Below are positions 1 through 33,620 of a DNA stretch of 58,255 nucleotides, piece by piece. The stretch comes from an uncultured Sulfurimonas sp. (GTDB lineage: Bacteria; Campylobacterota; Campylobacteria; Campylobacterales; Sulfurimonadaceae). The stretch lies in NCBI GenBank assembly GCA_964481625.1, contig CAYZUN010000001.1, forward strand, positions 1-58,255, given 5' to 3'. Each line of letters begins with the position of its first letter. Positions within the stretch are counted from its first letter, which is position 1. Below the pieces are notes generated by a model. The model ran no database searches. It was not told the DNA's origin and was given only the letters and a program-made list of their open reading frames with translations. Position numbers and translations under genes: made by a program.

Positions 1-3000
1 ACGACCATTGAGGCGGACAGTATCATAGTTATTTAAAATACAATCATTTTCATTAACTTCAAAGTTTCTTGTCACAGTATGATGACGCATTAATGATGGA
101 TCATAATCAACACGTGTCCAGTTATGATCAATAATATTGACACGATATTCCCCAACATTAGGAAGTATTGAATAAAATGCTCCACTTTTTCCATGTATAA
201 AACTTGGTTCACTGTTGTCTGCTTGAACAAAGTTCCTATTGGTAATGTCATTACAATTTACATTTCTAGCTACTACATTTGTTGTTGGATTCCAAAAAAG
301 TGTTGCATTAATCTCTTTAGGTTCAACGGTGTAATTTTGTGTTGCCAAAAAATTGAAATGATTGGTTGCTGTAAAATCAAAACGATAATTATATCTTGCA
401 GCAACATTAATGCGATTGGTTATTGTTGCCGGTGCAGATACATTTGCTTCGTAGCCATATTGTCTGGAGAGACTTCGTGGAATATTTGTCGTATTGTTGT
501 AATCTATTCCGCTATCATACATGGTAATCATAAGAGCTTCGGGTCTAATGGCAAAGTTGTCACGTGAACATGTTGCAGTAGTATAATTTTGTCTTATACA
601 GTTAAAACAATCAATACTATTAGGATTAGATCCACACGCACTGCTGGCACTACACAGAGTATGTTTTGCATTATTGTAAAGTCCATTAATGTAGTTGGTT
701 GTGCCATTTTCATCAACAACAGTCCAATTTGGAATTATGCTGTTGTTGCCATCATGAAAGTGCCAAACTCTAAAGGCGGCATTTTTAGCTGCAGAAGCAT
801 AAAAAGCAGGCCCTTGCGTTGGAATACTGGTCTTGTTAATTGCCGATGTTGTAATGGAGTTAACAAATATTGGCTGCGTAATACTTGCATCAGGATCGTT
901 ACAAGTTGAGGTATTAATATCATTAAATGAGTTAGCATTAATAATATCTACCATTACAGTGGTATTAAAGTCGAAGTCCGGTTTTTTGAATCCTCCACTT
1001 ATAAGATCTGCCTCATACAAGACTAAATCAACATTAAATGGATTTTGAGCTACTTGAGTAAATAGATTGTTATAATAGTCGTTAGTGCCATCTCTACTTG
1101 CATTAAGACCACGATCAATGACATTAAACACGCCCCATTTTGGATTGTAGCCGTTAGAAGGAGGACACCTTGTTACTTCAACACCTAATGTATATTCATA
1201 AGGAATAGGTATGGTTCCGGTTGGAGGAACAATGTAATAGTCAAGTTTTACATCAAGTGAAATGTTGGCATCACCTGAAAAGCCAGAGGGGTCAAGCTCA
1301 AATTTGGTGTACATATATTCTAATGAAGCTAAAGCACCGCTGCGATTTTGTCCATATCCAGTGGCTCCTTCTCCTAAACCAATACGCACATTGCCACTGT
1401 TTTGACAGACTCTGCTGGTGGTACCTTCATCGGTATAGTTACACGTACCGGTTACTTCAGAATAAGGGCTATAAATTGGACTATTAGGTTCAGAAATATA
1501 AGTGCTACCAGAGATGTATTGAATTTTAGAGGTGTTCATATCTGTAGAGAGTGAAATTCCTTGAACAGGGAAATCAGATTGCGTACTGCGTAAGTAAAAA
1601 CCTGCTTCAATCGGCGAAGAGGAGTCAATGTAGCCCTCAATAGTCGGTAGTCGCGATTCGTTGTTATCTTTTGAAAGATAGCGTCCATTTTGTTTATAAG
1701 TGTAGTCATAACACAGTGTTGGAGCAATCAATTCGGTCTGAAAGGCAATCATTGATGGCCAATAGGTGTCACTTTCATTGCCTGTAGCTGTCTTTATAGT
1801 AGTTGTTTTAAAATGAAATTCCATGTCGGTCTGTTTGGCTACGAGATTATCACCAATATTAAAAGTCTGAATATCAATACCGTTATTGTTTATTAGATTT
1901 GGAGCACGTCCAGCGCCTCCTGAAACGGAGGAGTCAAAGGTGTTTGTACCACTTGAGGGAAGTGTCACTACCGTGCCATCATTGTAATTAATGGTTGTTA
2001 GGGTATCAGTAGCAATATTTTTGTCACCCTCCGCCGCAAATATTGACACTGATGAAGTGATAGGATCAGTTGTATTAGGTGTGTAAAAGCCTGACACATC
2101 TACTTGAACATCATTGGGACCGGTACCCTGAATTATTTGCCAACCATCAAACACGGAAAAACTTCGAAATTTTTCTACAGGATTTAAACTATCTTCATAA
2201 ATAACAACAAGGGTCCATGCACCGTAAGCCCCGAGAGTTCCTACTCTACCTTCGGTAACCGGAACATCAGCTACTACATAAGTTCCGGCTTCCCAACCAT
2301 TAGTTTTAAAAATAGAAGTGACATCAGTAAATGCAGAATAACTGGTAAAACCGCCTATGCCTGCATCGTGCATATAGTCTAAAATATCAGGAGAGACCGT
2401 AGTGTAACTTGCACCATCTTTTTTGAGCTTAATGCTCATGGTGGTTCCAAAGTCGGTACTAAGAACCAATGCTTGCCAGTAAAGCCCTACCCACGCAATA
2501 TTAGCATCAGCAGGCATTACTAAATCTGCTGAAGTAGAGTTGTTGGTTGTTCCGGGTTCTAATTGATATTCACATAAGTAATAGTAGTTGTTGGGTTCGG
2601 TAGCATCTGTAATAAAGGTACCGTTAGTGTAGCTGTCACACATGTTACCGCTTATATCGTTAGTATTTACTGTCGATGCTGTTTGTGTTGGAGGAACCAG
2701 TACTGTGTTCCCGATGGTTTTCATATTTCCTTTTAGATACATTTGCGTGCGCAGTGTAAAATCACGGTAGTTTTCAGAGATGGCTTCTTTAACTGTTAAG
2801 GTGACGTTTGCGCTTAATGTGATGGTACCAGAGCCGTCCAAGACTTCATAGGTAAAGCTGTCAGTACCATCGTAGCCAGCATTAGGCTGATAAGTCACGC
2901 GTCCGTCCGAGAGGATAGTCGTAGTTCCATGAGAAACATCTGAGGTAATAACAACCGTAGCAGGATTCACTCCGCTATCATTTTGTAAGATGTCAATGAC

Positions 3001-3837
3001 AGTGGTAGAATTGTGTGCTACTGTTAAGGTGTCATCCGTAGCATAGGGAGGTATGTAAGTAAAAGTAAAATCAATTGAATAGGCTTGAGTTGTAGAGTAG
3101 CGTCTCTCTAAAGCAATAACTATGTGTTGATTGGCATTGACGTTAATTTGGGGTGATGATTTGCTCTGAGAATCATTCGTATTACTCCATAAATCTACGC
3201 CGCATCCATCTTTAATGAACAGAGAGTTGGCGGTGCCGCCTACCCATGAATCGATCTGAATGGTTCCTGTAACCTGAGGAGTAAAGTAGTAGTAATAAGT
3301 GTTGCCGTCTCTTATGTTGCCGCTATTAGAATCGGTAGTACTTGTCGTTGTTCCATCAAGATTACTAATAACATCACCGGGACAGCTAAGGTTAGTGGCT
3401 TCTGGAGTAAGGTCAATATCTAAATCATACGTCATCAAACTATTATATCTTCGTTCAATTTTCACGTAAACAGTAGTGCCCGCAGTCACGGAAAAAGGAG
3501 CAGGATTTTTTGTAGTTGAATCAGCCGTACCATTGTAATAGTTATTCCCGTCACAGCTAGAACCAATAAAGAGTGAATTATTTAATTTATCGGTTGAAAA
3601 GTACATATCAATCTCTGCATTAACGGCAACGGTAAATTGATAATAGTCATATTTATCGGTAGACTCGTAAACTGTTCCGCTTTCGGTATGAGATGCTGCA
3701 ACCGAAATGTTATTGAGTTCTCCAATAGTTTCAACATTGCTACAATCACCATTGAATTCAGCGTCAGCATGTAAAAACATACCAGATAATAATAATAAAG
3801 TTAAATTTAATCGAAAAAAAGATAGCAAATTTTTCAT
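1..3837 (-). CDS. Large secreted surface/adhesin-like protein, C-terminus cut by the window edge (>=1279 aa). Contains a signal peptide, two PPC-like modules, a cadherin-like (VCBS/Tandem-95 type) domain and a long Cys-containing beta-rich region (reminiscent of MshQ/DUF6701, unverified).
   Basis: Not in the supplied ORF track because it has no stop codon in the window. Hand translation of the minus strand from ATG 3837..3835 gives MKNLLSFFRLNLTLLLLSGMFLHA/DAEFNGDCS... It stayed open everywhere I spot-checked (3837-2821, 660-541, 60-1). Motifs read: DKYDYYQFTV...YVKIERRY and NTYYYYFTPQV...IALERRY (two similar modules); DDTLTVAHNSTTVIDILQNDSG...DGRVTYQPNAGYDGTDSFTYEVLDGSG; CSASSACGSNPNSIDCFNCIRQNYTTATCSRDNFAIRP. 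No competing ORF of >=60 aa is listed between 1728 and 3581. Confidence 0.8.
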   Translation of the reverse strand, partial: MKNLLSFFRLNLTLLLLSGMFLHADAEFNGDCSNVETIGELNNISVAASHTESGTVYESTDKYDYYQFTVAVNAEIDMYFSTDKLNNSLFIGSSCDGNNYYNGTADSTTKNPAPFSVTAGTTVYVKIERRYNSLMTYDLDIDLTPEATNLSCPGDVISNLDGTTTSTTDSNSGNIRDGNTYYYYFTPQVTGTIQIDSWVGGTANSLFIKDGCGVDLWSNTNDSQSKSSPQINVNANQHIVIALERRYSTTQAYSIDFTFTYIPPYATDDTLTVAHNSTTVIDILQNDSGVNPATVVITSDVSHGTTTILSDGRVTYQPNAGYDGTDSFTYEVLDGSGTITLSANVTLTVKEAISENYRDFTLRTQMYLKGNMKTIGNTVLVPPTQTASTVNTNDISGNMCDSYTNGTFITDATEPNNYYYLCEYQLEPGTTNNSTSADLVMPADANIAWVGLYWQALVLSTDFGTTMSIKLKKDGASYTTVSPDILDYMHDAGIGGFTSYSAFTDVTSIFKTNGWEAGTYVVADVPVTEGRVGTLGAYGAWTLVVIYEDSLNPVEKFRSFSVFDGWQIIQGTGPNDVQVDVSGFYTPNTTDPITSSVSIFAAEGDKNIATDTLTTINYNDGTVVTLPSSGTNTFDSSVSGGAGRAPNLINNNGIDIQTFNIGDNLVAKQTDMEFHFKTTTIKTATGNESDTYWPSMIAFQTELIAPTLCYDYTYKQNGRYLSKDNNESRLPTIEGYIDSSSPIEAGFYLRSTQSDFPVQGISLSTDMNTSKIQYISGSTYISEPNSPIYSPYSEVTGTCNYTDEGTTSRVCQNSGNVRIGLGEGATGYGQNRSGALASLEYMYTKFELDPSGFSGDANISLDVKLDYYIVPPTGTIPIPYEYTLGVEVTRCPPSNGYNPKWGVFNVIDRGLNASRDGTNDYYNNLFTQVAQNPFNVDLVLYEADLISGGFKKPDFDFNTTVMVDIINANSFNDINTSTCNDPDASITQPIFVNSITTSAINKTSIPTQGPAFYASAAKNAAFRVWHFHDGNNSIIPNWTVVDENGTTNYINGLYNNAKHTLCSASSACGSNPNSIDCFNCIRQNYTTATCSRDNFAIRPEALMITMYDSGIDYNNTTNIPRSLSRQYGYEANVSAPATITNRINVAARYNYRFDFTATNHFNFLATQNYTVEPKEINATLFWNPTTNVVARNVNCNDITNRNFVQADNSEPSFIHGKSGAFYSILPNVGEYRVNIIDHNWTRVDYDPSLMRHHTVTRNFEVNENDCILNNYDTVRLNGR

Positions 3838-3991
3838 GCATTCCCTTCTATTGCTAAATAGCCAATAGCACTAATATCGACTATTTACATGTATTTATTA
3901 ATTAATCTTCGTAATTATAAACGTATTTTTACTTTAATACGACTAAAACTTTGAATATAATTTAACGATAGATAGTTATAAAAATCTGTTT

Positions 3992-4756
3992 TTAGAGCTT
4001 TTCAGCTCTATTATAGGCACTTTCAATTGCAGCAATAAACCCTTGGCGTACGGCAGATTTTTCTAATGCACCGTAACCTGCTGCGGTGGTACCGCCCGGG
4101 CTCATGACACCATCTTTAAGCAGAGCAGGGTGAATCTCTTGAATGAGTGTACCAAAGCCATCAAAAAGACCGCGCATAAGTGTCATGGCATCATCACGTT
4201 TAAGTCCTTGTTTCACAGCACCATCAGCAAGTGCTTCAGCAACAAGCGCTAAATATGCCGGACCGCTTCCCGCAAGAGCAGTGGCAATGTCAAGCTCTTT
4301 TTCACTGTTTAACCACAATGTTGTGCCAATGGAGGCAAAAAGCTCTTGAGCCTCTATTTTACATGTAGTTTCACCTGTTAGTGTTGTCATGGATTTTCCG
4401 ACAGTAGCTGCGAGGTTTGGCATGGCTCTGACATAAGATACAGCCTCAATGTTCTGCGTTAACGTTTCAAGTGTTGTTCCAGCTAAAACAGAGTACAGTG
4501 TTTTGGCACGACCTTTTAAGAGTGATTGCATTTCAAGAATATTAGCAGGTTTGACACAAAGAATAATGGTTTTATCGGTGATATCAAAACCATTGATATC
4601 AGCTTTTAGAATTTTTACATATAAATTTTCTTCAAAAGCTTCAAGTTTACCGCTGTTACGTCCCGCTACCTCAATGTCATAACGTTCCTTCAGACTCACT
4701 GCCATTGCCATTGCCATATTGCCATTTCCAATAAATGTGATAGTTTCGCGCATCAT
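3992..4756 (-). CDS. proC: Pyrroline-5-carboxylate reductase
   Basis: 254 aa. N-terminal Rossmann motif FIGNGNMAMAMA; GSGPAYLALVAEALADGAVKQGL and MSPGGTTAAG motifs are typical of ProC. Overlaps fliW by 4 nt. Confidence 0.9.
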   Translation of the reverse strand: MMRETITFIGNGNMAMAMAVSLKERYDIEVAGRNSGKLEAFEENLYVKILKADINGFDITDKTIILCVKPANILEMQSLLKGRAKTLYSVLAGTTLETLTQNIEAVSYVRAMPNLAATVGKSMTTLTGETTCKIEAQELFASIGTTLWLNSEKELDIATALAGSGPAYLALVAEALADGAVKQGLKRDDAMTLMRGLFDGFGTLIQEIHPALLKDGVMSPGGTTAAGYGALEKSAVRQGFIAAIESAYNRAEKL

Positions 4757-5136
4757 TGAGCCTTTAAAAATGTCGAAATAGGTTCGGCAATATCAAGCGA
4801 TGCGTTATCACTAATAATGATTTGTCCCGCTTTCTTACAGCTAGTATTAAAAATTATGGGTGCAATAAAATTGACGACAGAGTTCTCAATAGGTGTTTGG
4901 ATAATAATAATATTGTAAATAAGTATATTACTGGCGTCATTAATTTCTAAGGCACTTTGAACTGATGCGGGAATCTCAAATGAGTACTCACGCAGTGCAA
5001 AAGGGTCAACCAGGGTAAAGGCAATCTTTTTAGAGTCAGGAGACTCAAGATGCATGAAAATATCGTCTATCTTTTCAAGTTTTAACTGCTTGATCTCTTC
5101 AAAACCAAGCAGAGGCTGTGTTACTTCAAATAGCAT
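4753..5136 (-). CDS. fliW: Flagellar assembly factor FliW
   Basis: 127 aa. N-terminus MLFEVTQPLLGFEEIKQLKLEKIDD..F..LES and the FTLVDPFALREYSFEIP pattern match the FliW family. The fliW-proC pairing next to bamD-lon is as I recall for Campylobacter jejuni. Confidence 0.8.
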   Translation of the reverse strand: MLFEVTQPLLGFEEIKQLKLEKIDDIFMHLESPDSKKIAFTLVDPFALREYSFEIPASVQSALEINDASNILIYNIIIIQTPIENSVVNFIAPIIFNTSCKKAGQIIISDNASLDIAEPISTFLKAQ

Positions 5137-5232
5137 AATTAGGCACCTATTGATTGTATTAGATGGGAGTATTATACAATATTTTATTTTCTTTAGCTAA
5201 AATACCATCTATTTTAAATAACGGTGTAAACG

Positions 5233-5943
5233 ATGCTAAAAAATATAATAATTTTTATAACGGCGCTGATGTTATTAACAGGTTGTCAAAAAGAGGAACC
5301 TGAGTATAATAAACCGGCAATTTACTGGTATCAGCAGATGGTTAATGCAGTTTCAAACTCTATGTTGGAAAAAGCAGATAATTTCTACAGTTCGCTTCAA
5401 AGTGAGCATATTGCTTCACCGCTTTTAAAAGAGGCGACACTGATTATGGCACAAGCGCATATGCATAATGAAGAGTATCTTTTAAGTGATCACTTCTTAA
5501 GTGAATACTTAAAGCGTTATGCTACGCAGAGTGAGCATGAGTATATCGAGTATTTACGGATGAGAGCAAAATATATGGCACTGCCAAATGCCTCACGAGA
5601 TCAAGGACTTATTACCAATGCTATTGTCACAGGTGAGAATTATAAACGCAACTATCGGCACTCTCAGTACTACAGTATTGTAGATAGTATGGTTACACGT
5701 CTTTATGTTGCACAGGGGGCATTAAATGAGAATATTGCTAAGCTTTATGATCGATTAGATAAACCTAAAGCAGCAGAGTTTTATCGTAATATTAAACCTG
5801 AATTATGGATTGTATGGGATGAAATTGAACCTGCCTCTGTACCATTTTACCGCAGCGTTTTTGAAGGTGACGGCGATGACAGCTGGTATTCTTTTGTCAT
5901 ACCTGATACCCAAAGTGTTGTCTCACGACGCACTAATAATTAA
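5233..5943 (+). CDS. bamD: Outer membrane protein assembly factor BamD (ComL-like lipoprotein)
   Basis: 236 aa. Lipobox LLTGC at the N-terminus, TPR-like helical repeats, and a position directly upstream of lon as in other Campylobacterota. Confidence 0.65.
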   Translation: MLKNIIIFITALMLLTGCQKEEPEYNKPAIYWYQQMVNAVSNSMLEKADNFYSSLQSEHIASPLLKEATLIMAQAHMHNEEYLLSDHFLSEYLKRYATQSEHEYIEYLRMRAKYMALPNASRDQGLITNAIVTGENYKRNYRHSQYYSIVDSMVTRLYVAQGALNENIAKLYDRLDKPKAAEFYRNIKPELWIVWDEIEPASVPFYRSVFEGDGDDSWYSFVIPDTQSVVSRRTNN

Positions 5944-8398: not shown

Positions 8399-8779
8399 TT
8401 AAATAGAAGTCCACCTCATAATTTTACCCATCACATCTTTTTCTCTGATGGGCTTCATTAAAAAATCGTTAGCACCACACTCTAACGCTTCTGTTTTTTT
8501 TGTCTCATCTGTGGTTAAAACAATAACCGGTATCGCTTTGAGTTCATCATCGGCACGTATGACTTTAAGCATCTCAATACCGCCCATCACAGGCATAATA
8601 ATATCAAGAAGTACCAGATCAATACCAGGCTGTGTTTTTAAAACAGCAATCGCATCAGCACCATTTTTGGCTTCAATAACCTCTGCAATTGAATCAGACT
8701 TACGTAACATTGACTTCAGAAGTTTTAAGTTAATCATGTCATCATCAACAGCTAATATTTTCAGGTTTGTTTTTGTCAT
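8399..8779 (-). CDS. Single-domain response regulator (CheY-like receiver)
   Basis: 126 aa. ILAVDDD..., LVLLDIIMPVMGG, VIVLTT and K-P motifs of a REC domain. Overlaps the upstream kinase gene by 1 nt. Confidence 0.9.
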   Translation of the reverse strand: MTKTNLKILAVDDDMINLKLLKSMLRKSDSIAEVIEAKNGADAIAVLKTQPGIDLVLLDIIMPVMGGIEMLKVIRADDELKAIPVIVLTTDETKKTEALECGANDFLMKPIREKDVMGKIMRWTSI

Positions 8780-11700
8780 TATGCGACCTTATTTTTAATA
8801 ATAAATTTTTCGAAAACTAAACGTAATAGATCTTTGTTAATAATGTTTTTAATAATCTCATGTACATAAAGAGCATCATCGTCATCGAGTGTCGTTGTTG
8901 GATCTGTTAACATAATTAAAGCGATGTCACTGTTAATCTCTCTTACTATGTCACTTAGCTCTTTAATGTTAACATTAGGAAGCTCTTTGTCAAAAAGAGC
9001 AACTCTAAACCGTTTTTCATTCAGCATGGATTTAAAATCGGTAATGTTTGAAACACTTTGGTAATTATATCCAAGGTCATCAAGTATCCTACAAAAAAGC
9101 TTATTTTCTAAAAGAGTTTTTTTCGCTACAAGAATATCAGCATCATAATGGATCTCTTGAGCTTCAGGCTCTTTGGCAGCCACTGCTTCGATTATACTGT
9201 TTTGAGGTTGAGGTATTTCTTGTTCCACTTGTTCTAAAAGAGGCTCATTGGAACTATTTTGTGCAGAAACTGCCTTGTTGCCTATGAACATATTTAAGAT
9301 AGCTATAATCTCTGTGCGCACAAGAGGTTTTGTAGTGTATTCATCCATACCGGCTTCCATAAATCGCTCTCTGTCACCTTTGAGGGCATTGGCTGTCAGT
9401 GCAACGATTGGAACATGTGTTAAGTTATTATCGGCTTCATAATCAAGTATTTCCATAGTCGACTCAATACCATCAAGTACCGGCATCTGTATATCCATAA
9501 AGATGATGTCAAAGTCAGCATTTTTACGTTGTTCAAAAGCTTCAAGACCGTTGTCGGCTAATGCTACGGTAAGACCAAGGTCCTGAAGCGTTTTTTGAAT
9601 GAGTTTCTGGTTGATGAGATTATCTTCAGCTACAAGAACATTAGCATTAAATTTAGAAGCCCGTGATTGGATACGTTTTCGCTGAGCTTCTTTGACCTCT
9701 TTTTTACTAGTAAACTCTTCAATATCATAAGATTGAATAATGTTTTTGATTTTTGTACCATTAAGAGGCTCATAGATAATTTTAAATAGATCAAGATCCA
9801 TTGAATCAATCTTTTTCATATAGAGCGACTTCATAATGAGTATTACTTCAGCAGGTGAATTGACATACTCCACAAGGTCTTCATCGTTAGTTAAATCAAA
9901 ATCTATAAACAAGAGGTCGTAATTGATTTGTGTCTGAAGGTTTCTGAGCTCTTGGAGTGAGGTAAATCTTTGGAAGTTGACACCATAATAACGCAGATAT
10001 GCTTTTAAATACTCATGGTGTGCTTTTTGTTTTGTATCAGACTCTAAGATGGCTACATTGATATTTGTGTAGACTCCTAAAGTACTCTCTTCGAGTGTTT
10101 CAAGCTCTTCAAACTCAAGGGTAAAGAAGAAAGATGTACCGTTTTCCGGTGAACTTTCAAGGTCAAGTTGACCTCCCATTAGTTCTACAAAACGGCTTGA
10201 AATGGTAAGTCCTAGACCCGTACCGCCATATTTTCTGGTAATGGAAGTATCTGCTTGTGAAAAGGCATCAAAAATTTTGGCTTTTTGTTGTGCTCCAATA
10301 CCGATACCGCTGTCACTGACTTCAAATCGAATTTTGACACGGTTAGGTTCATCACATGGTTCGCGGCGAATATCGACATGAATATCACCATTATTATTAG
10401 TAAATTTAATGGCATTGCTAAGGAGGTTAATGATGACCTCTTTGATTTTAGTCGGATCCCCTTTGATGGGGCACTCTAACGTTGGGTCAATAAAACATGA
10501 TAGGTTAATATGCTTCTCAGATGCTCTTACACCGTAAACTTCAACGGCACTTTCAAACTCGTCAGTAAGATCAAAAGCAATCTCTTCAATCTCAAGCTTA
10601 TTGCTTTCAATTTTAGAGAGGTCAAGAACATTATTGATAATTTCAAGGAGATTTTCTGAACTCTTTTCAATAATATCAATAAACTCTTTTTGCTCCTCTT
10701 GCAGGTCTGTATCTTTAAGAAGTTCGGTAAAGCCGACAATACCATTGAGCGGCGTACGAATCTCATGCGACATATTAGCCAAAAACATCGATTTTGCTTC
10801 ACTTGCATCAACGGCATAGGCTTTATCTCGACGGGTCTGTTCAATAATATTTTCTAAGATAATATAGGCTTGCTCTGTTCCTTTAGAGGTGTCAAGATTA
10901 ATATCGTGTGCAATATTTTTTGACTCTTCATCAGCACTATCTTCTGCAACACGTTTAAGAACAGACTCTAAAGTTTTAATATTACGTGCAATACCGGTAG
11001 ATACTATGTAACCAACAATTGCAATCAAGAAGGTGATAATCCAGATAGTGACTGCAATAATCAAGACCTGAAGCTCTTTATCTTTGATGGTATCGGCACG
11101 ATTGTCCATAGCATTGAGCAAGATCAGTTCTATTTCATTAAAAAGGTTGATTTTTTCTGAGAGAGTGTTAAACCAGATACTAGGATCAGTTTGAAATACA
11201 CCGCTATTTAAGGAGCGAAAAATATTTAGACGTTCCGCCGTGACATCTCTAAAGAGTTCTAAGTTGTCTTCATTATCAAAAAGGTTGGTGATCTCTTTTT
11301 TAACGTCTTCATTTATTAAACTTCTATAAGAGAGTGTATCTGTTTTATCAATAAGAAAGAACCAGTTTGTGAGCTCTGTATCACTAAGCGGTTTTGCTTT
11401 TGTTAGAAGAAATGCAATAAATCCACGCTCTTGAGCAGTATACTCTTTTGCTTGCAAAAAAGAGTGATACGTAGAGGCTAATGAGGTAATCTCTTCTTCA
11501 ATATGAAATGATGGATCATTTCCTAAAAGATCAATAAAATGTTCAATGGTGCGGCTGTATGAATCATAAAAAACTGTATTGAAATCATCTGTTTTGGTGT
11601 CAACTAATATTCTGGCTTCTTTGATTTTCTCAAAAAGTTCAGAGCTTTTTTTGAGACTGTTGCAGGTATTACATACGGCTTCACCTTTGCTATGGTTATG

Positions 11701-18751: not shown

Positions 18752-20302
18752 ATGAAAGATGTCAGTATCATCGTCCTTGATTTTGGTTCACAATATACAC
18801 AGTTAATTGCACGAAGATTACGTGAAGAGCGCGTCTATTGTGAGATTCTTCCGTATCATACAAAAGTCGATGCTATTAAAGCGAAAAACCCTCAAGGAAT
18901 TATTTTAAGTGGTGGTCCGTCATCGGTCTACAATAAAGATGCTTATGAAGTTGATCAAGAAGTTTACAATCTAGGACTTCCTGTTTTAGGAATTTGTTAT
19001 GGAATGCAGCGTATTGCTGTTGATTTTGGCGGTTCAGTGGTTCGAAGTGATCATCATGAGTATGGTAAGGCAGAACTTCTTATTAATCAAGAGCATAGCG
19101 AGAGTTCACCACTGTTTGAAGGGTGTGATGACAGTCGTACTGTCTGGATGAGTCATAGTGACCGTGTTGATGAACTACCTGAGGGTTTTAAGCCTATTGC
19201 TCATTCAGATAACTCGCCGTTTGCGGCCATTGCCAATGAAGAGAAACGTGTTTATGCAATGCAGTACCATCCTGAAGTTCAGCACTCCCAAGAGGGCTAT
19301 TTGATGCTTCGTAACTTTGCACGTAACATCTGTGGTGTGACTGAGAAATGGAAGATGGAGCACTTTGTTAAAGAGCAGATTTTAAAAATTCGTGAACAAG
19401 TTGGTGATGCAAAAGTACTTTGTGGTCTTAGTGGCGGAGTTGATTCTTCTGTTACTGCTGCAATTATTTACGAAGCCATTGGCGATCAGCTTATTCCTGT
19501 TTTTGTTGATAATGGACTGCTGAGAAAAGGGGAGCGTGAACAAGTTGAAGAGGTCTTTAAAATTAATCTCAAAGTACCTCTAATTACTATTGATGCAGTT
19601 GATAACTTTTTAGGAAAACTTGAAGGTATTTCTGATCCTGAAACTAAACGTAAAATTATTGGACATACTTTCATTGAAGAGTTTGAAAAAGAGGCGAAAA
19701 AACATGATGGTATTAAGTTCTTAGCACAAGGAACCCTCTACCCTGATGTTATTGAATCCATTTCAGTTAACGGTCCATCAGAAGTTATTAAGTCTCACCA
19801 TAATGTAGGTGGTCTGCCGGACTGGATGGACTTTGAACTCATCGAGCCACTGCGTGAACTCTTTAAAGATGAGGTTCGTAAAATGGGTCTTGAGCTTGGA
19901 CTTCCATCAGGTATGATTAACCGTCATCCATTTCCTGGACCTGGGCTTGCGATTCGTATTATGGGTGATGTAAATCGTCTTGACTTGACACTGCTTCGTG
20001 AGGCTGATGTTATTTTACTCGATGAACTTAAAGCAAGTGGGTACTACGCCAAAACGTGGCAGGCATTTGCAGTACTGTTAAATGTAAAATCAGTTGGTGT
20101 TATGGGTGACAATAGAACGTATGATAATACCGTATGTGTACGTGTTGTTGAAGCAGTTGATGGAATGACGGCAACCTTTGCACATCTTCCACATAATTTA
20201 CTAGAGCGTATCAGTCGTCGTATTATTAATGAAGTTGATGGTATTAACCGCGTTGTTTACGATATTAGCTCCAAGCCTCCAGCAACAATTGAGTGGGAGT
20301 AG
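18752..20302 (+). CDS. guaA: GMP synthase (glutamine-hydrolysing)
   Basis: 516 aa. GATase1 domain (GICYGMQ, catalytic Cys; HPE), ATP-PPase SGGVDSS, and C-terminal ...KPPATIEWE. Confidence 0.97.
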
Positions 20303-20333
20303 AAATTACATGTAAATTTACATGTAATTTCTA
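20300..20333. repeat. Perfect 34-bp palindrome TAGAAATTACATGTAAATTTACATGTAATTTCTA, made of two copies of the abundant TTACATGTAA motif. It includes the guaA stop codon and may act as a terminator or stem-loop.
   Basis: Read directly from the sequence. The two arms are exact reverse complements around 20316/20317. The motif copies are at 20306-20315 and 20318-20327. Confidence 0.9.
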
Positions 20334-20339
20334 ATATAT

Positions 20340-29900: not shown

Positions 29901-29984
29901 GCACCAGTGGCGGAACGGTAGACGCGCGGGCTTGAGGGGCTCGTTTCGAGAGAAGTGGAAGTTCAAATCTTCTCTGGTGCACCA
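29901..29984 (+). tRNA. tRNA-Leu (anticodon GAG), class II with long variable arm, CCA encoded
   Basis: Cloverleaf folded by hand. Acceptor GCACCAG/CTGGTGC; D-arm GCG-GAACGGTAGA-CGC; anticodon stem CGGGC/GCTCG with loop TTGAGGG; 13-nt variable arm; T-arm GGAAG-TTCAAAT-CTTCT; discriminator A + CCA. Confidence 0.9.
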
Positions 29985-30329
29985 CTCTTAAACCCTTATA
30001 TTTAGGGACTTCATTTACAAGTAACAACAAAAAAAATAAATAACAGTTGACAGAATCTTGTGACATAAGACATCAACAAACCTTCTAATAAACAAAAATA
30101 CCACACTATATTCTTACATTGATTTTTTAACAAATATTGTCATTCTGTAGTGATTTTGACAATGATATTACACAAGTTATTACACAGTTTTTAGAAAATA
30201 TACGAAAATGAGCTAGTTATTACACAGAAGTTTAAGTAATTATTAAGAATCATAAATTATTAGAATATTTCCCTTATAGATATAATAGTTGTGTCATATG
30301 ACATAAAAACTATATCATACGAACTATGA

Positions 30330-31169
30330 CTAAATAATCCCTGCTTCACTCAACGCATTAGCAAACTCAGCACTCGCCACTTTAGATACTCTTTCTACTT
30401 GTTTCTTATGTTTTATATACATCTGTTTATGTTCATCAGTATCTTGTAATAGAGTCTCTTCAAAGTATCTGCTATATTCTAAAAACTCTTTGAGCATTGT
30501 ATCTATCTTTTGATGATATTCATCGCCACCAATAGACTTAACTTCAACATGATTAGGTTCAACTTTTTCTACATTCCAAACTGTTCCCTTTTTTGTCTTA
30601 ATCTTTCTACTTGCTTGCTTTGTGTAAGAAGAGAGTATATCCATTACATTCTGGCTATAACCAATTCTTGGTTCCCATGATGATAGTAGGCTAGCTTTAT
30701 CACATAACAACATGAACTTATAGAAGTTAAAGTTGATACCATCTCTTGCAGTAGTAGAAATATGGATGTGGAAGCCAGTCTCTTCGTTTGTGTAGCCATA
30801 CTTGTCAATGATAGGACATATTGTTTCTATGTAATGCTTTATTCCTGAAGCGGTAGTTATAGGTACTGAAATTTCAATGCCATTATCTTCAAGTGATATA
30901 TCTGGTTTTATCTGTATGCAGTTATTTTTGTCAGCATCTGTTGGTAGATTAACTGTGTCAACTAATATTTCTGCATTTGTAACCGCATAAATCTCTTTCG
31001 TAATGCTGTCGATGGTAGAGTTGAAGTCATGAACTTTCGTATCGATGTAAAACTCAAACTCACAACCATACTGGTACTCATCAGTTTCTTTTACTGCATG
31101 CCCATTGTAGTCGCAATTAAGATTAGCTTTGTATCTTTTTGTAGTACCGTTAGTTATATACTTCATCAT
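30330..31169 (-). CDS. Amidoligase (glutamine synthetase-like fold, Amidoligase_2-type COOH-NH2 ligase)
   Basis: 279 aa. Ordered motifs of the family read in the translation: YGCEFEFY (E-x-E strand); IQIKPDISLEDNGIEISVP (D.S....E.xS.P); ETGFHIHIS (H-x-H); NHVEVKSIGGD (E-x-K/R...GG). The start overlaps the upstream gene stop (ATGA). Confidence 0.65.
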   Translation of the reverse strand: MMKYITNGTTKRYKANLNCDYNGHAVKETDEYQYGCEFEFYIDTKVHDFNSTIDSITKEIYAVTNAEILVDTVNLPTDADKNNCIQIKPDISLEDNGIEISVPITTASGIKHYIETICPIIDKYGYTNEETGFHIHISTTARDGINFNFYKFMLLCDKASLLSSWEPRIGYSQNVMDILSSYTKQASRKIKTKKGTVWNVEKVEPNHVEVKSIGGDEYHQKIDTMLKEFLEYSRYFEETLLQDTDEHKQMYIKHKKQVERVSKVASAEFANALSEAGII

Positions 31170-31774
31170 CCCTCAATCATTGCATCTAAGGTGCTATGCA
31201 ATCTTCCAATTTTGTAATCAACATTATTAGTCCACTCTTTTAATGCTTGCTGGTCACTAGGTACATCAGAATCCTCTCGAATATATACAAAAGCTCTCTG
31301 TACACCATGATGAGATTTAACTTCTATTCTTTTTCTTACATAATAATCAGGTGCACCTTCAAACTCATCTATCTTTTTCATCAGTTCAGATCTTGTAATT
31401 TTATATAGTTCACCTTGTATCTTGGCATGTGGTGCATCTACAAGATAAGGGTAATTTCCAAAAGAGTCTTCAAACATAGCAAATTTTTTCACTGTATGTG
31501 CCTTGCCAAGTCTTTTAGCATATTTGCTAAGAAGGTTGTGGTTATCAAAGCCTTTCTTTAGTGATCCGTATACAAAGAGTAGTTCGTTGAATGTCTCTTC
31601 TTTTTTGAAGTGACCTTTGCTTACAATAGTAATAACACCATTGTCATGAAGTCTATGTAGAATCTTTCTAGTTGTATCAGTAGAAACACTATCTATCTTA
31701 GCAGCAGAAAATGGTAAAGTTGTATCTGAATCTAATGACTGCACTTTACGATGAATCTTTTCAATATAAGACAT
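31166..31774 (-). CDS. Fusion protein: N-terminal AbiEi-like winged-HTH plus C-terminal gamma-glutamylcyclotransferase (GGACT/AIG2-like)
   Basis: 202 aa. Residues ~20-58, FSAAKIDSVSTDTTRKILHRLHDNGVITIVSKGHF, resemble the AbiEi/wHTH N-domain. From residue 65: LFVYGSLKKGFDNHNLL ... IQGELYKI ... IDEFEGAPDYYVRKRIEV ... AFVYI. This is the YGSL-x-x-G and catalytic Glu (GELY) pattern of the GGCT fold. RBS AAGGAG lies 6 nt upstream of the ATG. Confidence 0.65.
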   Translation of the reverse strand: MSYIEKIHRKVQSLDSDTTLPFSAAKIDSVSTDTTRKILHRLHDNGVITIVSKGHFKKEETFNELLFVYGSLKKGFDNHNLLSKYAKRLGKAHTVKKFAMFEDSFGNYPYLVDAPHAKIQGELYKITRSELMKKIDEFEGAPDYYVRKRIEVKSHHGVQRAFVYIREDSDVPSDQQALKEWTNNVDYKIGRLHSTLDAMIEG

Positions 31775-31795
31775 TTTCTACTCCTTTAAGCTATC

Positions 31796-31832
31796 GTGAC
31801 AATATTATAGCAAAATTATATAATATTGTCAC
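31796..31832 (-). promoter_or_regulatory. Promoter and operator of the wHTH-GGCT/amidoligase cassette: perfect 14-bp inverted repeat GTGACAATATTATA-N9-TATAATATTGTCAC overlapping an extended -10
   Basis: Arms at 31796-31809 and 31819-31832 are exact reverse complements. On the minus strand, TGCTATAAT (plus-strand coordinates 31804-31812) lies 16 nt downstream of TGACAA. The gene ATG is at 31774. Confidence 0.6.
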
Positions 31833-32140
31833 TATAGTTTTTCTGTTGACTTATCTGTATAATGGACTTTAATATGAAGTATTGAATACTTTTATTCATC
31901 AGGTTGGTATTTATAAAACAAAGTAATATTATGAAATAATTGAGATTACAGTATCTTATATTTTTTTATTCTACCATCAAGTTTTATAATAATATTATCT
32001 GCCTCAGCTTTTATAAGCTGTCTAACTCATCCTAACCATAGTAGGAAATTTTATAACTATTTGAGTACTTATATGCCTGATTGGAAGAAGAGGAAAGAGC
32101 GGTTGGAACTACCTCAGTAATCTTATTATTTGTAGGGTGT

Positions 32141-32168
32141 AGGAGTTCAAATCTCCCCGATCGCACCA
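32141..32168 (+). pseudogene. tRNA 3'-end fragment (T-arm, acceptor 3' strand and CCA) with no matching 5' half
   Basis: AGGAGTTCAAATCTCCCCGATCGCACCA resembles the tRNA-Leu 3' end GGAAGTTCAAATCTTCTCTGGTGCACCA. They share GTTCAAATCT and GCACCA, and the following TCTT..AA is also similar. I could not find a complementary 5' acceptor strand (GCGATCG) upstream. Confidence 0.5.
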
Positions 32169-32184
32169 TCTTCAAGAAGTAAAC

Positions 32185-33477
32185 TTACATTGATAAATAT
32201 TGCCACTTATAAAATGGCACTAGTTTTATCTCAATATCATCTTGAATAATTTCATCTTCACTATCATATGTGACAATAATACCACTACTGAGATTAAAAT
32301 TTTTACATGCCGCAACAAGACCTTTAGTTTCTCTATATTTAGTATCTTCATCACTCATATCATAGGTAACTTGAATAGCATGTGTAATTGAATTTTGTTC
32401 GTGAATAATAAAATCACATTCGCTGTTTGAGTCACGATAATAAAATATTTCTTTGTTGTTTCTTCTAAGTTCTAAAAATACTGCATTTTCTAAAGATTTA
32501 CCAATGTTATCAGAGAACTTAAACTCAGTGGCATTGTTTAGCCCTATATCTATACTATAAATCTTTTTCTCACCAAGTTCTTTATTTACAAGTGACTTGT
32601 CATAACGGTGCAGTGTTAGTGCTAGGTAAATGTTCTGTACATAATCTAAAAAATCATAGAGTGTATTTTTACCTATTTTGATGCCATTAGATTTGAGTTC
32701 ATTGTAAATTTTGTTAATAGATATTTGCTTTGTTGAAGAAGCTATTATTCGTTTCAAAAAGAATTTTAAAGCAACAGTATTACTAATATTATATCTCTCT
32801 GCTAGGTCTTTATAGAGTAGTACATTAAAATACTCTTGTAATGTTTGGTTTCTATACCGTTCTTCTAAAAATAGTGTTTCAGGAAAACTACCATTTTTTA
32901 AAAAGCTCTCCTGTGCATTTTTGATATGAGCTAAACTTTTTGAAGAGTATAAATCTACTTCAATATCTTTGAATAAAAGGTACTCACTAAAAGAGAGAGG
33001 ATAAACTTCATAAGATAAAGTTCGCCCTCTTAAACTTGTGGCAATTTCAGAACTAAGTAGTTTTGAGTTGGAACCGGTGATGAATATGTTTTTACTGATG
33101 GTGTCATACACCCGTCTTATAAACTTTTCCCATCCGGTAATATTTTGAATTTCATCAAAGAAGAGATAACATTCATTTAGGTTTTGATCAGGATAAAGCT
33201 CATTAAAGCTTTGAAGTATTAAATCAAGTTTATCGACCTCTAGCTCAAGTCGCTCATCTTCAAAGTTAAGAAATAGTATTTTTGTTTTATCGATGCTGTT
33301 AGACAGTTGATTTATCATGTCATATAATATTGATGTTTTTCCACATCGTCTAACACCTATAAGTGTAATAATCTTTTTAGTGTCAAGCGGAGGTTGCAGT
33401 GCACGAGGTTTTACATCAAAATTATCATTAAGATGGAAATCTCTAATAATATGTTTTAGCTGTTCTTTCTTTTTCAT
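32185..33477 (-). CDS. AAA+ ATPase with C-terminal DUF4143-like (restriction-endonuclease-like) domain (COG1373 type)
   Basis: 430 aa. Walker A GVRRCGKTS, Walker B LFFDEIQ, and overall architecture and length typical of AAA_14 + DUF4143 ATP-binding proteins. Confidence 0.7.
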   Translation of the reverse strand: MKKKEQLKHIIRDFHLNDNFDVKPRALQPPLDTKKIITLIGVRRCGKTSILYDMINQLSNSIDKTKILFLNFEDERLELEVDKLDLILQSFNELYPDQNLNECYLFFDEIQNITGWEKFIRRVYDTISKNIFITGSNSKLLSSEIATSLRGRTLSYEVYPLSFSEYLLFKDIEVDLYSSKSLAHIKNAQESFLKNGSFPETLFLEERYRNQTLQEYFNVLLYKDLAERYNISNTVALKFFLKRIIASSTKQISINKIYNELKSNGIKIGKNTLYDFLDYVQNIYLALTLHRYDKSLVNKELGEKKIYSIDIGLNNATEFKFSDNIGKSLENAVFLELRRNNKEIFYYRDSNSECDFIIHEQNSITHAIQVTYDMSDEDTKYRETKGLVAACKNFNLSSGIIVTYDSEDEIIQDDIEIKLVPFYKWQYLSM

Positions 33478-33620
33478 AAGGAAGATTATATATGATTTTA
33501 TCTTTTATATAGATAAAGTTGAGTTTTGTATAGATTAGATTTTTTTCAGAAATTTTCATCATTTTTAGGTTATGATAAAGTCTATATATGTAGTTTATGT
33601 TTAAAAAAAGGCATTAGTTT

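Follow-up and report, generated by a model that had tools for sequence, protein, structure and literature searches.

A mobile two-gene cassette of Campylobacterota encoding a winged-helix cyclotransferase and a putative minimal amidoligase: a possible toxin-antitoxin-like module

The locus and its predicted operator

The stretch of DNA analysed in the present study (58,255 nucleotides from an uncultured Sulfurimonas sp.; hereinafter, the window) contains a self-contained cassette of about 1.5 kb, comprising two genes located on the minus strand (31166–31774, then 30330–31169). The features of the cassette and its neighbours are as follows.

31166–31774, minus strand: gene 1, 202 aa, fusion of a winged helix-turn-helix (wHTH) and a GGACT domain; proposed autorepressor and antitoxin-like de-modifying enzyme
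31595–31774, minus strand: N-terminal wHTH of gene 1, residues 1–60; putative recognition helix DTtRKiLHRLHD
31232–31579, minus strand: GGACT/AIG2-like gamma-glutamylamine cyclotransferase domain of gene 1, residues 66–181; Pfam PF06094, E 6.5e-24
30330–31169, minus strand: gene 2, 279 aa, minimal Amidoligase_2-type carboxylate-amine ligase with a predicted glutamine synthetase (GS) fold; proposed toxin/effector
31166–31169, minus strand: stop/start overlap ATGA; alternative gene 2 start, ATG at 31166–31164
31781–31786, minus strand: Shine-Dalgarno sequence AAGGAG, 6 nt 5' of the gene 1 ATG, read from the sequence
31796–31832, no strand assigned: predicted palindromic operator GTGACAATATTATA-N9-TATAATATTGTCAC; conserved core GTGAC-N27-GTCAC
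31804–31832, minus strand: sigma-70-type promoter; -35 GTGACA (31832–31827), 17 nt, extended -10 TGcTATAAT (31812–31804)
29901–29984: tRNA-Leu(GAG)
32185–33477: AAA_14+DUF4143 ATPase

The open reading frames of 202 and 279 aa share 4 nt (ATGA), as described in the earlier note, and this overlap implies translational coupling of the two genes. Gene 2 also possesses an alternative ATG 3 nt downstream, which would turn the ATGA overlap into TGATG and which agrees with the 278-aa length of P0001, a cluster 100% identical to the gene 2 product.

The earlier note placed the cassette in a low-GC islet next to a tRNA gene and an AAA/DUF4143 ATPase gene. Both neighbours are present, and the surrounding 3.6-kb stretch (29985–33580) does have the lowest GC content of the window (0.306 versus a mean of 0.369, sd 0.017), but the description does not extend to the cassette taken alone, which is mildly low at 0.338 (7th percentile of the window). 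A part for the ATPase in a larger system was rejected, since its gene does not accompany the cassette at other loci, and so was a tRNA-flanked island with an att duplication; the 30-nt match between the 3' end of tRNA-Leu and positions 32139–32168 is only 73% identical and belongs to a different tRNA-like remnant. The ATPase, lying outside the cassette, matches the PADLOC-DB 2.0 model PDC-S01; NCBIfam gave no informative match to the three proteins scanned.

The promoter (match 11/12, with a TG-extended -10) was said to be embedded in a perfect 14-bp inverted repeat, and the arms are indeed perfect over 14 nt (22 nt at 91% when extended, with the imperfect extension spanning 31788–31840), with the -35 and -10 boxes inside the palindrome. 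The left half-site is the -35 box GTGACA itself; the right half-site, TGTCAC (31801–31796), covers the expected transcription start. Perfect inverted repeats of at least 14 nt with a loop of up to 30 nt occur at two sites only in the 58-kb window, and dinucleotide shuffles of the window contain a mean of 0.02 such repeats, which points to a non-random palindrome. In 854 kb of related loci, GTGAC-N27/28-GTCAC occurs 35 times, and 34 of these sites are located directly upstream of a wHTH-GGACT gene, 12–27 nt before its start; the -35 box, the -10 box and their spacing are kept across the loci that share the operator, and five relatives whose GGACT protein has no wHTH also have no such site. Conservation of the predicted operator across 34 loci supports the putative autoregulatory layout suggested earlier. 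Measured between their centres, the half-sites are separated by about 32 bp, a wide spacing for a simple wHTH dimer.

Predicted products of the two genes

The C-terminal part of the gene 1 product was clearly recognised by HMM searches as a GGACT/AIG2-like domain, in agreement with the first assignment. Pfam PF06094 scores 85.2 bits (cut-off 22.8) over profile positions 1–118 of 120, PHROG 2520 matches with an E-value of 2.8e-22, and a PDB profile search aligned 1vkb, 2kl2 and 3jub (E 2.5e-9 to 1.8e-7), the matches including GGACT of mouse and human, whose catalytic Glu falls into register. YGSLKKG (residues 69–75) and GELY, which contains the putative catalytic residue E122, align with YGTLKRG and GEIY/GEVY of these structures; the catalytic Glu of human GGACT is E82. 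The motifs YGSLKKG, GELY and FEG..YYVR are invariant in 26 homologs. The AlphaFold 2 (AF2) model of this protein is usable for residues 1–60 only, the pLDDT of the GGACT domain being 30–50, probably because the alignment is shallow and its sequences are closely related; the GGACT assignment is therefore based on the HMMs.

The N-terminal domain is modelled with a pLDDT of 80–91 and an H-b-H-H-b-b topology, and all of its Foldseek and HMM matches are winged-helix DNA-binding domains; the Foldseek search with the gene 1 model gave wHTH matches only, with non-significant global E-values. The description of this domain as AbiEi-like is supported as regards the winged helix, but not specifically as regards AbiEi. 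PADLOC AbiEi models match residues 1–60 with E-values of 1.3e-4 (residues 1–58) and 1.9e-3, no Pfam AbiEi family matches gene 1 in the Pfam scan, the AbiEi structure 6y8q gives an E-value of 0.5 over 19 residues, and Lrp, GntR, DpnI_C and MecI score equally well or better. The specific claim was dropped after these PADLOC, Pfam and PDB profile comparisons, and the domain is predicted to be a generic winged helix.

The gene 2 product contains, in order, the motifs CEFEF (E37, E39), EISVP (E99, S101, P103), HIHIS (H134, H136) and VEVKSIGG (E209, K211, G214, G215), so that the whole series E-x-E, E-x-S-x-P, H-x-H and E-x-K..GG, noticed earlier, is present and is near-invariant in 27 sequences. 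Residues E37, E39, E99, P103, H134, S138, R168, E209, G214 and G215 are invariant down to 19–40% identity, H136 is nearly invariant across the 27 sequences, down to 19% identity, and K211 is replaced by R in distant relatives. The conserved residues are the putative equivalents of the metal-, ATP- and carboxylate-binding residues of GS.

Gene 2 itself scores 15.4 bits (E 0.017) against the Pfam family Amidoligase_2 (PF12224), below the cut-off of 22, so its assignment to this family depends on relatives and on the fold. PF12224 matches 21 of 30 close homologs (best E 4e-5), and relatives found with the family profile (E 1e-74 to 1e-10) exceed the cut-off with 23–68 bits. A sequence-only PDB search with the ligase profile yielded only noise (prefoldin, uL24m, E about 1), making a fold comparison necessary. 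In a Foldseek search of the PDB with the AF2 model (pLDDT 80.8, pTM 0.81), the top 50 matches were glutamine synthetases, 1-naphthylamine GS among the matches, and gamma-glutamylmethylamide synthetase (best E 8.7e-6, TM about 0.36–0.40). The best structural matches are phage amidoligases, "Amidoligase enzyme" models in BFVD (E 1e-10, query-normalised TM 0.45–0.57). Profile and fold comparisons together support the prediction of a GS fold for the gene 2 product and its placement as a minimal, divergent member of Amidoligase_2. Judged by their conserved motifs, both enzymes look catalytically intact. Among the system models of PADLOC-DB 2.0, the ligase matches none, and its partner has only the weak AbiEi wHTH match.

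Linkage, decay and distribution

The genome scan was conducted with alignment A1, the broad alignment A2 being too divergent. Of 40 distinct complete ligase genes, 39 have a GGACT gene immediately upstream (gap -8 to +6 nt), and the fortieth has it two genes downstream. The pairing, whose conservation in other genomes was a check proposed in the earlier note, is kept in relatives with 31–35% identity and is near-obligate.

The two genes decay unequally. Insertions of IS21 (L055) and IS3 (L059) split the ligase gene, and truncation or internal deletion affects it in L052, L067 and L068, with the GGACT gene intact in each of these five loci, all from metagenome bins; among the loci examined, there was no intact ligase gene with a missing or broken GGACT gene.

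The cassette is a sharply bounded mobile unit: blastn alignments of different loci break off precisely at the palindrome on one side and the stop codon on the other, and the 91% identity with L069 is confined to positions 30330–31835. It is common in sulfur-oxidising Campylobacterota, where its distribution is patchy and horizontally mobile, on plasmids and islands; two plasmids of Aliarcobacter butzleri carry it with HicAB and recombinases nearby, and it occurs on plasmids of the cultured strain A. butzleri P1100 / DSM 105472. At other loci, the flanking genes encode NB-ARC/TPR and patatin proteins, a TIR protein, MksE, Rhs toxins, CBASS with AIPR and AbiE, a type I restriction-modification system, integrases and transposases. 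The 140 neighbouring ORFs from 25 further loci include AbiE, SspH, SoFic, DpdF, PsyrT and PDC candidates together with many housekeeping genes, and in L074 the cassette lies amid housekeeping genes, adjoining groESL. The expected defence and mobile neighbourhoods are therefore found in part: defence, toxin-antitoxin and mobile genes and plasmids recur, but many loci lie among housekeeping genes, and the tally, uncorrected for background, is qualitative.

A phage origin of the cassette was considered and rejected. The tblastn search of 50,697 phage records gave zero matches, and of the 19 matches in IMG/VR a single one contains the genuine pair; it lies where a Mu-like prophage contig ends and may belong to the host. 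The remaining 18 matches are long phage amidoligases, only distantly related, and a GGACT-like ORF is found nearby in L017 only.

Possible functions of the cassette

The reading preferred in the present study, by analogy with known systems, is that of an autorepressed, mobile enzyme/anti-enzyme module that may work like a toxin-antitoxin (TA) pair with an enzymatic antitoxin; it is held tentatively, at slightly less than even chances. The gene 2 product would be an ATP-dependent ligase joining a carboxylate to an amine of a cellular or phage target, and the carboxylate, going by the family of the partner alone, would most plausibly be the gamma-carboxyl of glutamate. The GGACT domain would undo the modification, cyclising the gamma-glutamyl group to 5-oxoproline and freeing the amine, as the chemistry of its family suggests. 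The conserved operator suggests that the winged helix may bind GTGAC-N27-GTCAC, and, with both the -35 box and the expected transcription start covered by the operator, binding of the gene 1 product would keep the operon tightly repressed. This reading builds on the domain identities, strict linkage, implied translational coupling, a conserved operator, a bounded mobile unit and asymmetric decay, all seen in the sequences, and on the gene order, in which the gene for the regulator/antidote precedes that for the effector, as it does in type II and type IV TA operons. The many loci among housekeeping genes count against it, as do the wide half-site spacing, the sub-threshold PF12224 score of gene 2, the small number of decayed loci (five) and the metabolic interpretation published for such neighbourhoods, and the gene 1 protein is at least as conserved as the gene 2 protein, which is unusual for a TA pair. 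To our knowledge, the GGACT enzymes characterised to date act on free gamma-glutamyl-amines, not on protein-bound ones. A further-reaching version, in which the amidoligase poisons an essential host or phage target and the DNA-binding cyclotransferase is both antidote and autorepressor, would make the cassette the first TA or abortive-infection system to use reversible gamma-glutamylation; this is doubtful.

The earlier note knew of no characterised system with this architecture, which stands as far as experiments are concerned, but the neighbourhood itself was reported in 2008 by Iyer, Burroughs and Aravind, who described Amidoligase_2 genes beside an Aig2 cyclotransferase or a GAT-like peptidase and read the Aig2 neighbourhood as metabolite synthesis (PMC2588565). 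Neither the fusion of a wHTH to the cyclotransferase nor a TA-like arrangement of the amidoligase/GGACT pair is known to have been described. Amidoligase_2/Aig2 neighbourhoods of Firmicutes, prophages and LUZ24-like phages are reportedly treated also by Iyer et al. in Mol Biosyst in 2009. The cassette resembles the published neighbourhoods in that a GS-fold carboxylate-amine ligase of the same superfamily adjoins an AIG2/GGACT cyclotransferase; the profile search ties the cassette clade to proteins above the PF12224 threshold, and distant relatives keep the GGACT neighbour. It differs in its minimal ligase (279 aa), in the absence of GATase, ATP-grasp and COOH-NH2_lig partners, in a cyclotransferase that carries an N-terminal wHTH and comes first, in the conserved palindromic operator, and in being a mobile unit of Campylobacterota, whereas the published reading is not that of a conflict module.

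Other known pairs offer partial parallels. DarT/DarG and other TA systems with enzymatic antitoxins combine a modifying toxin with an antitoxin that removes the modification enzymatically, as is proposed by analogy here, and DarT/DarG is likewise bicistronic, mobile and found in defence islands and on plasmids; its gene order differs, and neither its folds nor its chemistry are related to those of the cassette, ADP-ribosylation and a macrodomain standing in contrast to the ATP-dependent amide ligation and cyclotransfer predicted from the genes of the cassette. In AbiEi/AbiEii, the first product combines a winged helix at the N-terminus with a neutralising domain at the C-terminus (as proposed for gene 1), the effector gene comes second, and promoter inverted repeats are consistent with negative autoregulation, but the cassette contains no AbiEii nucleotidyltransferase; its partner gene encodes an amidoligase, and a GGACT domain takes the place of the C-terminal AbiEi antitoxin domain. 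A further possible analogy for the cassette is offered by PafA/Dop (pupylation) and BtrJ/BtrG (butirosin), in which a gamma-glutamyl amide is formed by an ATP-dependent ligase and removed by a second enzyme. BtrG is an AIG2-like cyclotransferase; BtrJ, unlike the gene 2 product, is an ATP-grasp enzyme in a large biosynthetic cluster. PafA is a GS/GCS-fold ligase (PMC2588565), but no Pup-like small ORF or proteasome genes were found with the cassette. Neither pair is a mobile autoregulated two-gene cassette.

The two enzymes could cooperate instead of opposing each other: the ligase would make a gamma-glutamyl-amine that GGACT cyclises at once, with the net conversion of glutamate and ATP to 5-oxoproline, ADP and Pi, and this regulated futile cycle or 5-oxoproline generator, held off by the wHTH until a signal arrives, would act either as an effector of growth arrest or abortive infection or as a switch in metabolism. 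Gamma-glutamyl cycle chemistry and growth inhibition by 5-oxoproline are established, the two activities should be expressed at about the same level given co-transcription and translational coupling, conservation is strict at both active sites, a tight repressor layout suits a costly activity, and the defence-island contexts fit as well as under the TA-like reading. Cooperation would, however, lead one to expect that the loss of either gene is tolerated equally, whereas only the ligase was found disrupted and was never found without GGACT, and no sensor or trigger domain is evident besides the wHTH; we consider it unlikely.

A small-molecule pathway with no conflict function is rather improbable. 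Here, the ligase would build a gamma-glutamyl or glutathione-like peptide or a secondary metabolite, the cyclotransferase would trim or recycle the product or deprotect a gamma-glutamyl group in the manner of BtrG in butirosin synthesis, and the wHTH would respond to the product. The Amidoligase-Aig2 neighbourhood was interpreted in this way when it was published (PMC2588565); small gamma-glutamyl compounds are the products of many GS-fold ligases, the Foldseek matches include gamma-glutamylmethylamide synthetase and 1-naphthylamine GS, and several loci lie among metabolic or housekeeping genes. The two genes occur, however, without transporter or pathway genes, in unrelated contexts and within homology limits set by their own promoter and stop codon; they recur beside defence, TA and mobile genes, their plasmid copies lie beside HicAB and recombinases, and IS insertions affect the ligase gene only. 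Mobility, plasmids, defence contexts and IS insertions are more in keeping with a selfish or conflict module than with a metabolic unit. Even a metabolic cassette, with its wHTH-enzyme fusion and conserved operator, would provide a tidy model of a one-component regulator doubling as an enzyme.

Least probable, and indeed very unlikely, is modification of the envelope or of a phage component, e.g., the addition of an amino acid to a receptor, phage DNA or protein that excludes phages and leaves the host unharmed, with GGACT merely tuning or proofreading: phage and prophage Amidoligase_2 genes are common and occur with GATase, ATP-grasp and AIG2 genes (PMC3890496; PMC11318856), amidoligase genes accompany thymidine-hypermodification clusters (PMC8989533), the phiEco32 amidoligase has been proposed to modify a receptor (PMC11318856, citing Iyer 2009), and phage enzymes are the closest in structure to gene 2, but both proteins look cytoplasmic, the Pfam scan having found no signal-peptide, transmembrane or envelope domains, the cassette has no DNA-modification partner (kinase, glycosylase or hydroxymethylase), the tblastn search of phage records was empty, and the single viral-contig copy, at a Mu-like prophage edge, may be host DNA.

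If the TA-like reading is true, the list of known toxin activities would grow by ATP-dependent amide ligation or glutamylation, antidotes would have a new chemistry in cyclotransfer to 5-oxoproline, and bacterial and phage GGACT/AIG2 proteins would acquire a concrete role; Amidoligase_2, a large, phage-rich family with no experimental function known since it was noticed in 2008, would gain its first one. Perhaps some of the widespread and unexplained phage GGCT genes (PHROG 2520) could then be counter-defences of the orphan-antitoxin type against such ligases, a parallel being the phage-encoded orphan antitoxins that, according to PMC11825919, neutralise DarTG1. The cassette is tractable, being 1.5 kb long and self-contained, having a sharply defined predicted operator and occurring on plasmids of the cultured A. 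butzleri strain.

Organisation of the cassette and its promoter region

The cassette consists of two minus-strand genes, gene 1, encoding a winged helix-turn-helix (wHTH) domain fused to a GGACT cyclotransferase, and gene 2, encoding a putative amidoligase (the ligase), and is flanked by a tRNA gene and an ATPase gene:

29901-29984, tRNA-Leu(GAG), one flank of the cassette
30330-31169, minus, gene 2 ORF, 279 aa
31166-31774, minus, gene 1 ORF, 202 aa
6 nt before the gene 1 ATG, minus, ribosome-binding site AAGGAG
31812-31804, minus, -10 element TGcTATAAT
31832-31827, minus, -35 box GTGACA, followed by a 17-nt spacer
32185-33477, minus, AAA_14 + DUF4143 ATPase, the other flank

The ORFs share an ATGA overlap; if gene 2 instead starts at an in-frame ATG located 3 nt further on, the overlap becomes TGATG, and this alternative start fits the 278-aa length of P0001, a sequence cluster 100% identical to the gene 2 protein. 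The predicted promoter upstream of gene 1 is near-consensus and is enclosed by an inverted repeat, the arms of which are perfect over 14 nt and 91% identical over 22 nt. Perfect inverted repeats that are 14 nt or longer and have no more than 30 nt in the loop occur in two places in the 58-kb window (mean of dinucleotide shuffles, 0.02). The second long perfect palindrome, AGAAATTACATGTAAATTTACATGTAATTTCT (about 32 nt, 20300-20334), lies directly after a stop codon and, being AT-rich, is not a classic terminator. The palindromy of the operator also creates a mirror-image promoter-like site, GTGACA-N17-TATAAT (11/12), at 31796-31824 on the plus strand, pointing away from the cassette into a 350-nt non-coding stretch (31833-32184); this site is probably incidental, since the inner arms are asymmetric in other loci.

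The fetched loci (854 kb) contain the pattern GTGAC-N27/28-GTCAC 35 times; 34 of these occurrences are located 12-27 nt upstream of a wHTH-GGACT start, and three further loci contain the operator with one mismatch. The order of the elements is constant (GTGACA as the -35 box, then TGcTATAAT, then [T/A]GTCAC); the GTGAC/GTCAC cores and their spacing are kept across loci, in contrast to the variable inner arms. The right half-site is retained though it is not a promoter element, which argues for a protein-binding site, and the operator is absent in all five relatives whose GGACT protein is without the wHTH. That the wHTH may read the operator is best supported by this co-occurrence; the half-sites lie about 32 bp, or about three helical turns, apart from centre to centre, which suggests the binding of more than a simple dimer.

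The region 29985-33580 has the lowest GC content of all 3.6-kb segments in the window (0.306 vs. 0.369), and that of the cassette is 0.338. The overlapping genes, the promoter within an inverted repeat and the low-GC islet beside a tRNA and an AAA/DUF4143 gene, all described in the earlier note, are thus borne out, and its predicted autoregulatory layout gains support from the operator-promoter arrangement kept upstream of homologous genes at 34 loci.

The ATPase, whose gene has the lowest GC content of the islet genes (0.297), is a match (E 1e-108) to PDC-S01, which PADLOC lists as a candidate defence system of one gene, and does not accompany the cassette at other loci. Immediately downstream of its gene, at 32099-32168 (+), lies a tRNA-like remnant with a 7-8 bp acceptor stem, a T-arm (GGAGTTCAAATCTCC), a CCA end, a cloverleaf-like fold and an aberrant anticodon arm, for which ARAGORN and Rfam gave no call. 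The final 30 nt of the remnant share 73% identity with the 3' end of tRNA-Leu (29955-29984); the remnant could represent a relic att site or else a pseudo-tRNA at an island border. The very AT-rich spacer between tRNA-Leu and the cassette (GC 0.246), also present in the related locus L029, contains a 13-nt perfect direct repeat, AGTTATTACACAG, at 30175-30187 and 30215-30227, 40 nt apart.

Predicted domains of the encoded proteins

Residues 66-181 of the gene 1 protein match the Pfam GGACT/AIG2-like family (85 bits, cut-off 22.8, E 6.5e-24) and PHROG 2520 "gamma-glutamyl cyclotransferase" (E 2.8e-22), and a profile of 26 homologs revealed similarity to the gamma-glutamylamine cyclotransferase structures 1vkb, 2kl2 and 3jub (mouse/human; E 2.5e-9 to 1.8e-7). 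In the alignments to these structures, YGSLKKG falls on YGTLKRG and GELY (E122) on the GEIY/GEVY catalytic-Glu motif, and both motifs are invariant across the gene 1 family, so that the predicted GGACT assignment of the C-terminal part is a strong one. Residues 1-60 are modelled as an H-beta-H-H-beta-beta winged helix (pLDDT 80-91), and all structural and profile neighbours of this domain are winged-helix DNA-binding domains (DpnI C-domain, FadR/GntR, CRP, Lrp, MecI). The AbiEi-specific signal comes from a PADLOC model match alone (E 1.3e-4); none of the Pfam AbiEi families matched, and the AbiEi structure 6y8q gave E 0.5, so the domain is called here a generic wHTH. Two defining features of AbiE, an AbiEii nucleotidyltransferase partner and the AbiEi C-terminal antitoxin domain, were looked for and not found; the cassette is therefore not an AbiE system.

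The gene 2 protein scores 15.4 bits against Amidoligase_2, under the 22-bit threshold; 21 of its 30 close homologs match this family, and when 1.8 billion representatives were searched with a profile, the gene 2 clade was joined continuously to longer proteins above the PF12224 threshold, with scores up to 68 bits. The AlphaFold model (pLDDT 81, pTM 0.81) is similar to PDB structures of glutamine synthetases (GS) and gamma-glutamylmethylamide synthetase (best E 8.7e-6) with a TM of about 0.36-0.40, as expected when a 279-aa core is compared with 400-490-aa enzymes; the matches to models of phage proteins named "Amidoligase enzyme" are better (E 1e-10, query-normalised TM 0.45-0.57). Residues E37, E39, E99, P103, H134, S138, R168, E209, G214 and G215 are invariant in homologs down to 19-40% identity, and H136 is nearly so. 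The order E-x-E / E / H-x-H / R / E-x-R presumably corresponds to GS-type metal, ATP and carboxylate sites, and with this conserved pattern the enzyme looks catalytically competent. Sequence comparison and modelling together support the assignment of gene 2 as a minimal GS-fold amidoligase. Of the interpretation in the earlier note, the fused wHTH and cyclotransferase domains, the GS-fold ligase and the predicted autoregulatory layout stand, and the designation "AbiEi-like" finds no specific support.

Linkage, distribution and genomic context

Homolog searches yielded at least 372 ligase clusters and at least 468 partner clusters, almost all from Campylobacterota (Sulfurimonas, Sulfurovum, Sulfuricurvum, Arcobacter/Aliarcobacter, Nitratifractor and Nautiliaceae), with a few stray bins of other phyla. 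The pair proved to be a conserved neighbourhood: of the 40 ligase genes in the fetched loci that are distinct and complete, 39 are immediately preceded on the same strand by a GGACT gene, at a distance of -8 to +6 nt (35 with the wHTH fusion, four with GGACT only). Relatives at 31-40% identity keep this arrangement, and the lone exception, the most distant relative (23% identity), has the GGACT gene two genes downstream.

A blastn search of the region against all loci found homology from the ligase stop codon (30325-30330) to the palindrome (31832-31847); at locus L069, the 91% identity to the window is confined to 30330-31835, and homology on the tRNA-Leu side was found in L029 only.

Flanks of the cassette at homologous loci
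L001: NB-ARC/TPR, DUF4062, patatin, integrase, RelE, transposase
L002: MksE/DUF3584, glycosyltransferases
L005: NB-ARC, TIR-TPR, integrase, NucA/SMI1
L069: integrase, rve transposase
L070: Rhs toxins
L072: AIPR, CBASS (CD-NTase, Cap15), NERD, AbiEii/AbiEi
L074: housekeeping genes; the cassette adjoins groESL
L078: type I R-M with AAA_21

Among 140 further neighbour ORFs, defence or toxin-antitoxin matches (AbiEii, AbiEi, SspH, SoFic, DpdF, PsyrT, PDC-S04/M60C) were found together with integrases, Fic domains and many housekeeping families. The pair is also encoded on two Aliarcobacter butzleri plasmids, NZ_CP104379.1 (L080) and NZ_CP104333.1 (64-kb and 83-kb), from a cultured poultry isolate that represents a tractable source strain. 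The plasmid cassette (53% identity) neighbours two tyrosine recombinases, HicAB, tet(H), tet(M) and an IS21 element, and the RefSeq annotation of the pair is "gamma-glutamylcyclotransferase family protein" and "hypothetical protein", nothing more. Judged qualitatively, the distribution is that of a selfish or conflict module, situated often, not exclusively, in defence islands.

Asymmetric decay and the proposed mode of action

Several loci contain damaged ligase genes:

L055: ligase split by an IS21 element (istA/istB) at 2934-5484, after the HIH motif; GGACT intact
L059: ligase split by an IS3-type element at 2177-3335; GGACT intact
L052: ligase truncated at residue 190; GGACT intact
L067: ligase internally deleted; GGACT intact
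L068: ligase internally deleted; GGACT intact
L062: C-terminal half of the ligase only, 5'-truncated, from residue 131; GGACT lost

The insertions in L055 and L059 are independent, and both hit the gene inside, or shortly behind, the region of the GFHIHxS motif. No intact ligase without GGACT was found among the loci examined. The numbers are small (five loci), and this direction of decay would be expected if a ligase lacking its partner did harm and the partner by itself did none. In L062 (3880-6014), the ligase remnant adjoins an ArsR/permease pair and itself lies immediately upstream of a pair of the AbiEii nucleotidyltransferase type.

The comparisons above establish which domains are present, that the genes are linked, that the operator is conserved, that the unit is mobile and that its decay is asymmetric. 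The most likely reading, at a little short of an even chance, is an autorepressed enzyme/anti-enzyme module, the chemistry, toxicity and regulation of which we infer. At the expense of ATP, the ligase would place an amide modification on its target, most plausibly, given the family of its partner, by gamma-glutamylation of an amine; removal as 5-oxoproline would fall to the GGACT domain, and repression of the operon to the wHTH. The cassette would then work like DarTG-type modules with enzymatic antitoxins, yet it is unrelated to them. The asymmetry of decay and the absence of orphan ligases among the loci examined make it unlikely that the enzymes instead cooperate, with a futile cycle from glutamate and ATP to 5-oxoproline as the effector. 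Somewhat less likely still is that the pair serves the synthesis or recycling of a small molecule, as in the published reading of the Amidoligase_2/Aig2 neighbourhood, for which glutathione-like or peptide-metabolite synthesis was proposed in 2008 (PMC2588565); the sharp limits of the cassette, its independence of context and its presence on plasmids and in islands speak against it. Modification of an envelope or phage component that excludes phages is improbable, as no envelope signals were found in the Pfam scan, nor any DNA-modification partners. A toxin-antitoxin or defence function of this candidate enzyme/anti-enzyme cassette is plausible.

The pairing of the two enzymes is already known from the 2008 report and from phages and prophages: PF12224, GATase, ATP-grasp and AIG2 genes co-occur in LUZ24-like phages (PMC3890496), and Clostridium clostridioforme prophages have amidoligase and GGCT genes near each other (PMC11318856). 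Amidoligase genes have also been found with thymidine-hypermodification clusters (PMC8989533). No paper tying amidoligases to toxin-antitoxin or anti-phage function was found in the literature searched, and PADLOC contains no model for the ligase. What the present analysis adds is a minimal pair that stands alone, a wHTH fused to the cyclotransferase and combined with a defined operator, the mobility of the unit as a cassette in Campylobacterota, and indirect signs that the ligase may be toxic. The cassette is a clean, cheap-to-test candidate for new toxin/antidote chemistry and would supply the first function for a large orphan enzyme family.

A search of 50,697 phage records revealed zero copies of the cassette. 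Large phage contigs (L010-L027) encode long (426-760 aa), distant Amidoligase_2 proteins, two of them in tandem in L024; only L017 has a small GGACT-like ORF (8743-9099, minus) beside the ligase, on the opposite strand, so the phage versions are mostly without the tight GGACT pairing of the bacterial cassette. The sole IMG/VR contig with the pair, IMGVR_UViG_3300010965_000219 (L009, 1-9237), carries the end of a Mu-like transposable prophage (MuA-type transposase, MuB-like AAA protein, S24 repressor). Beyond the repressor, at the contig end, lies the cassette, which may be a prophage moron or part of the flanking host DNA.
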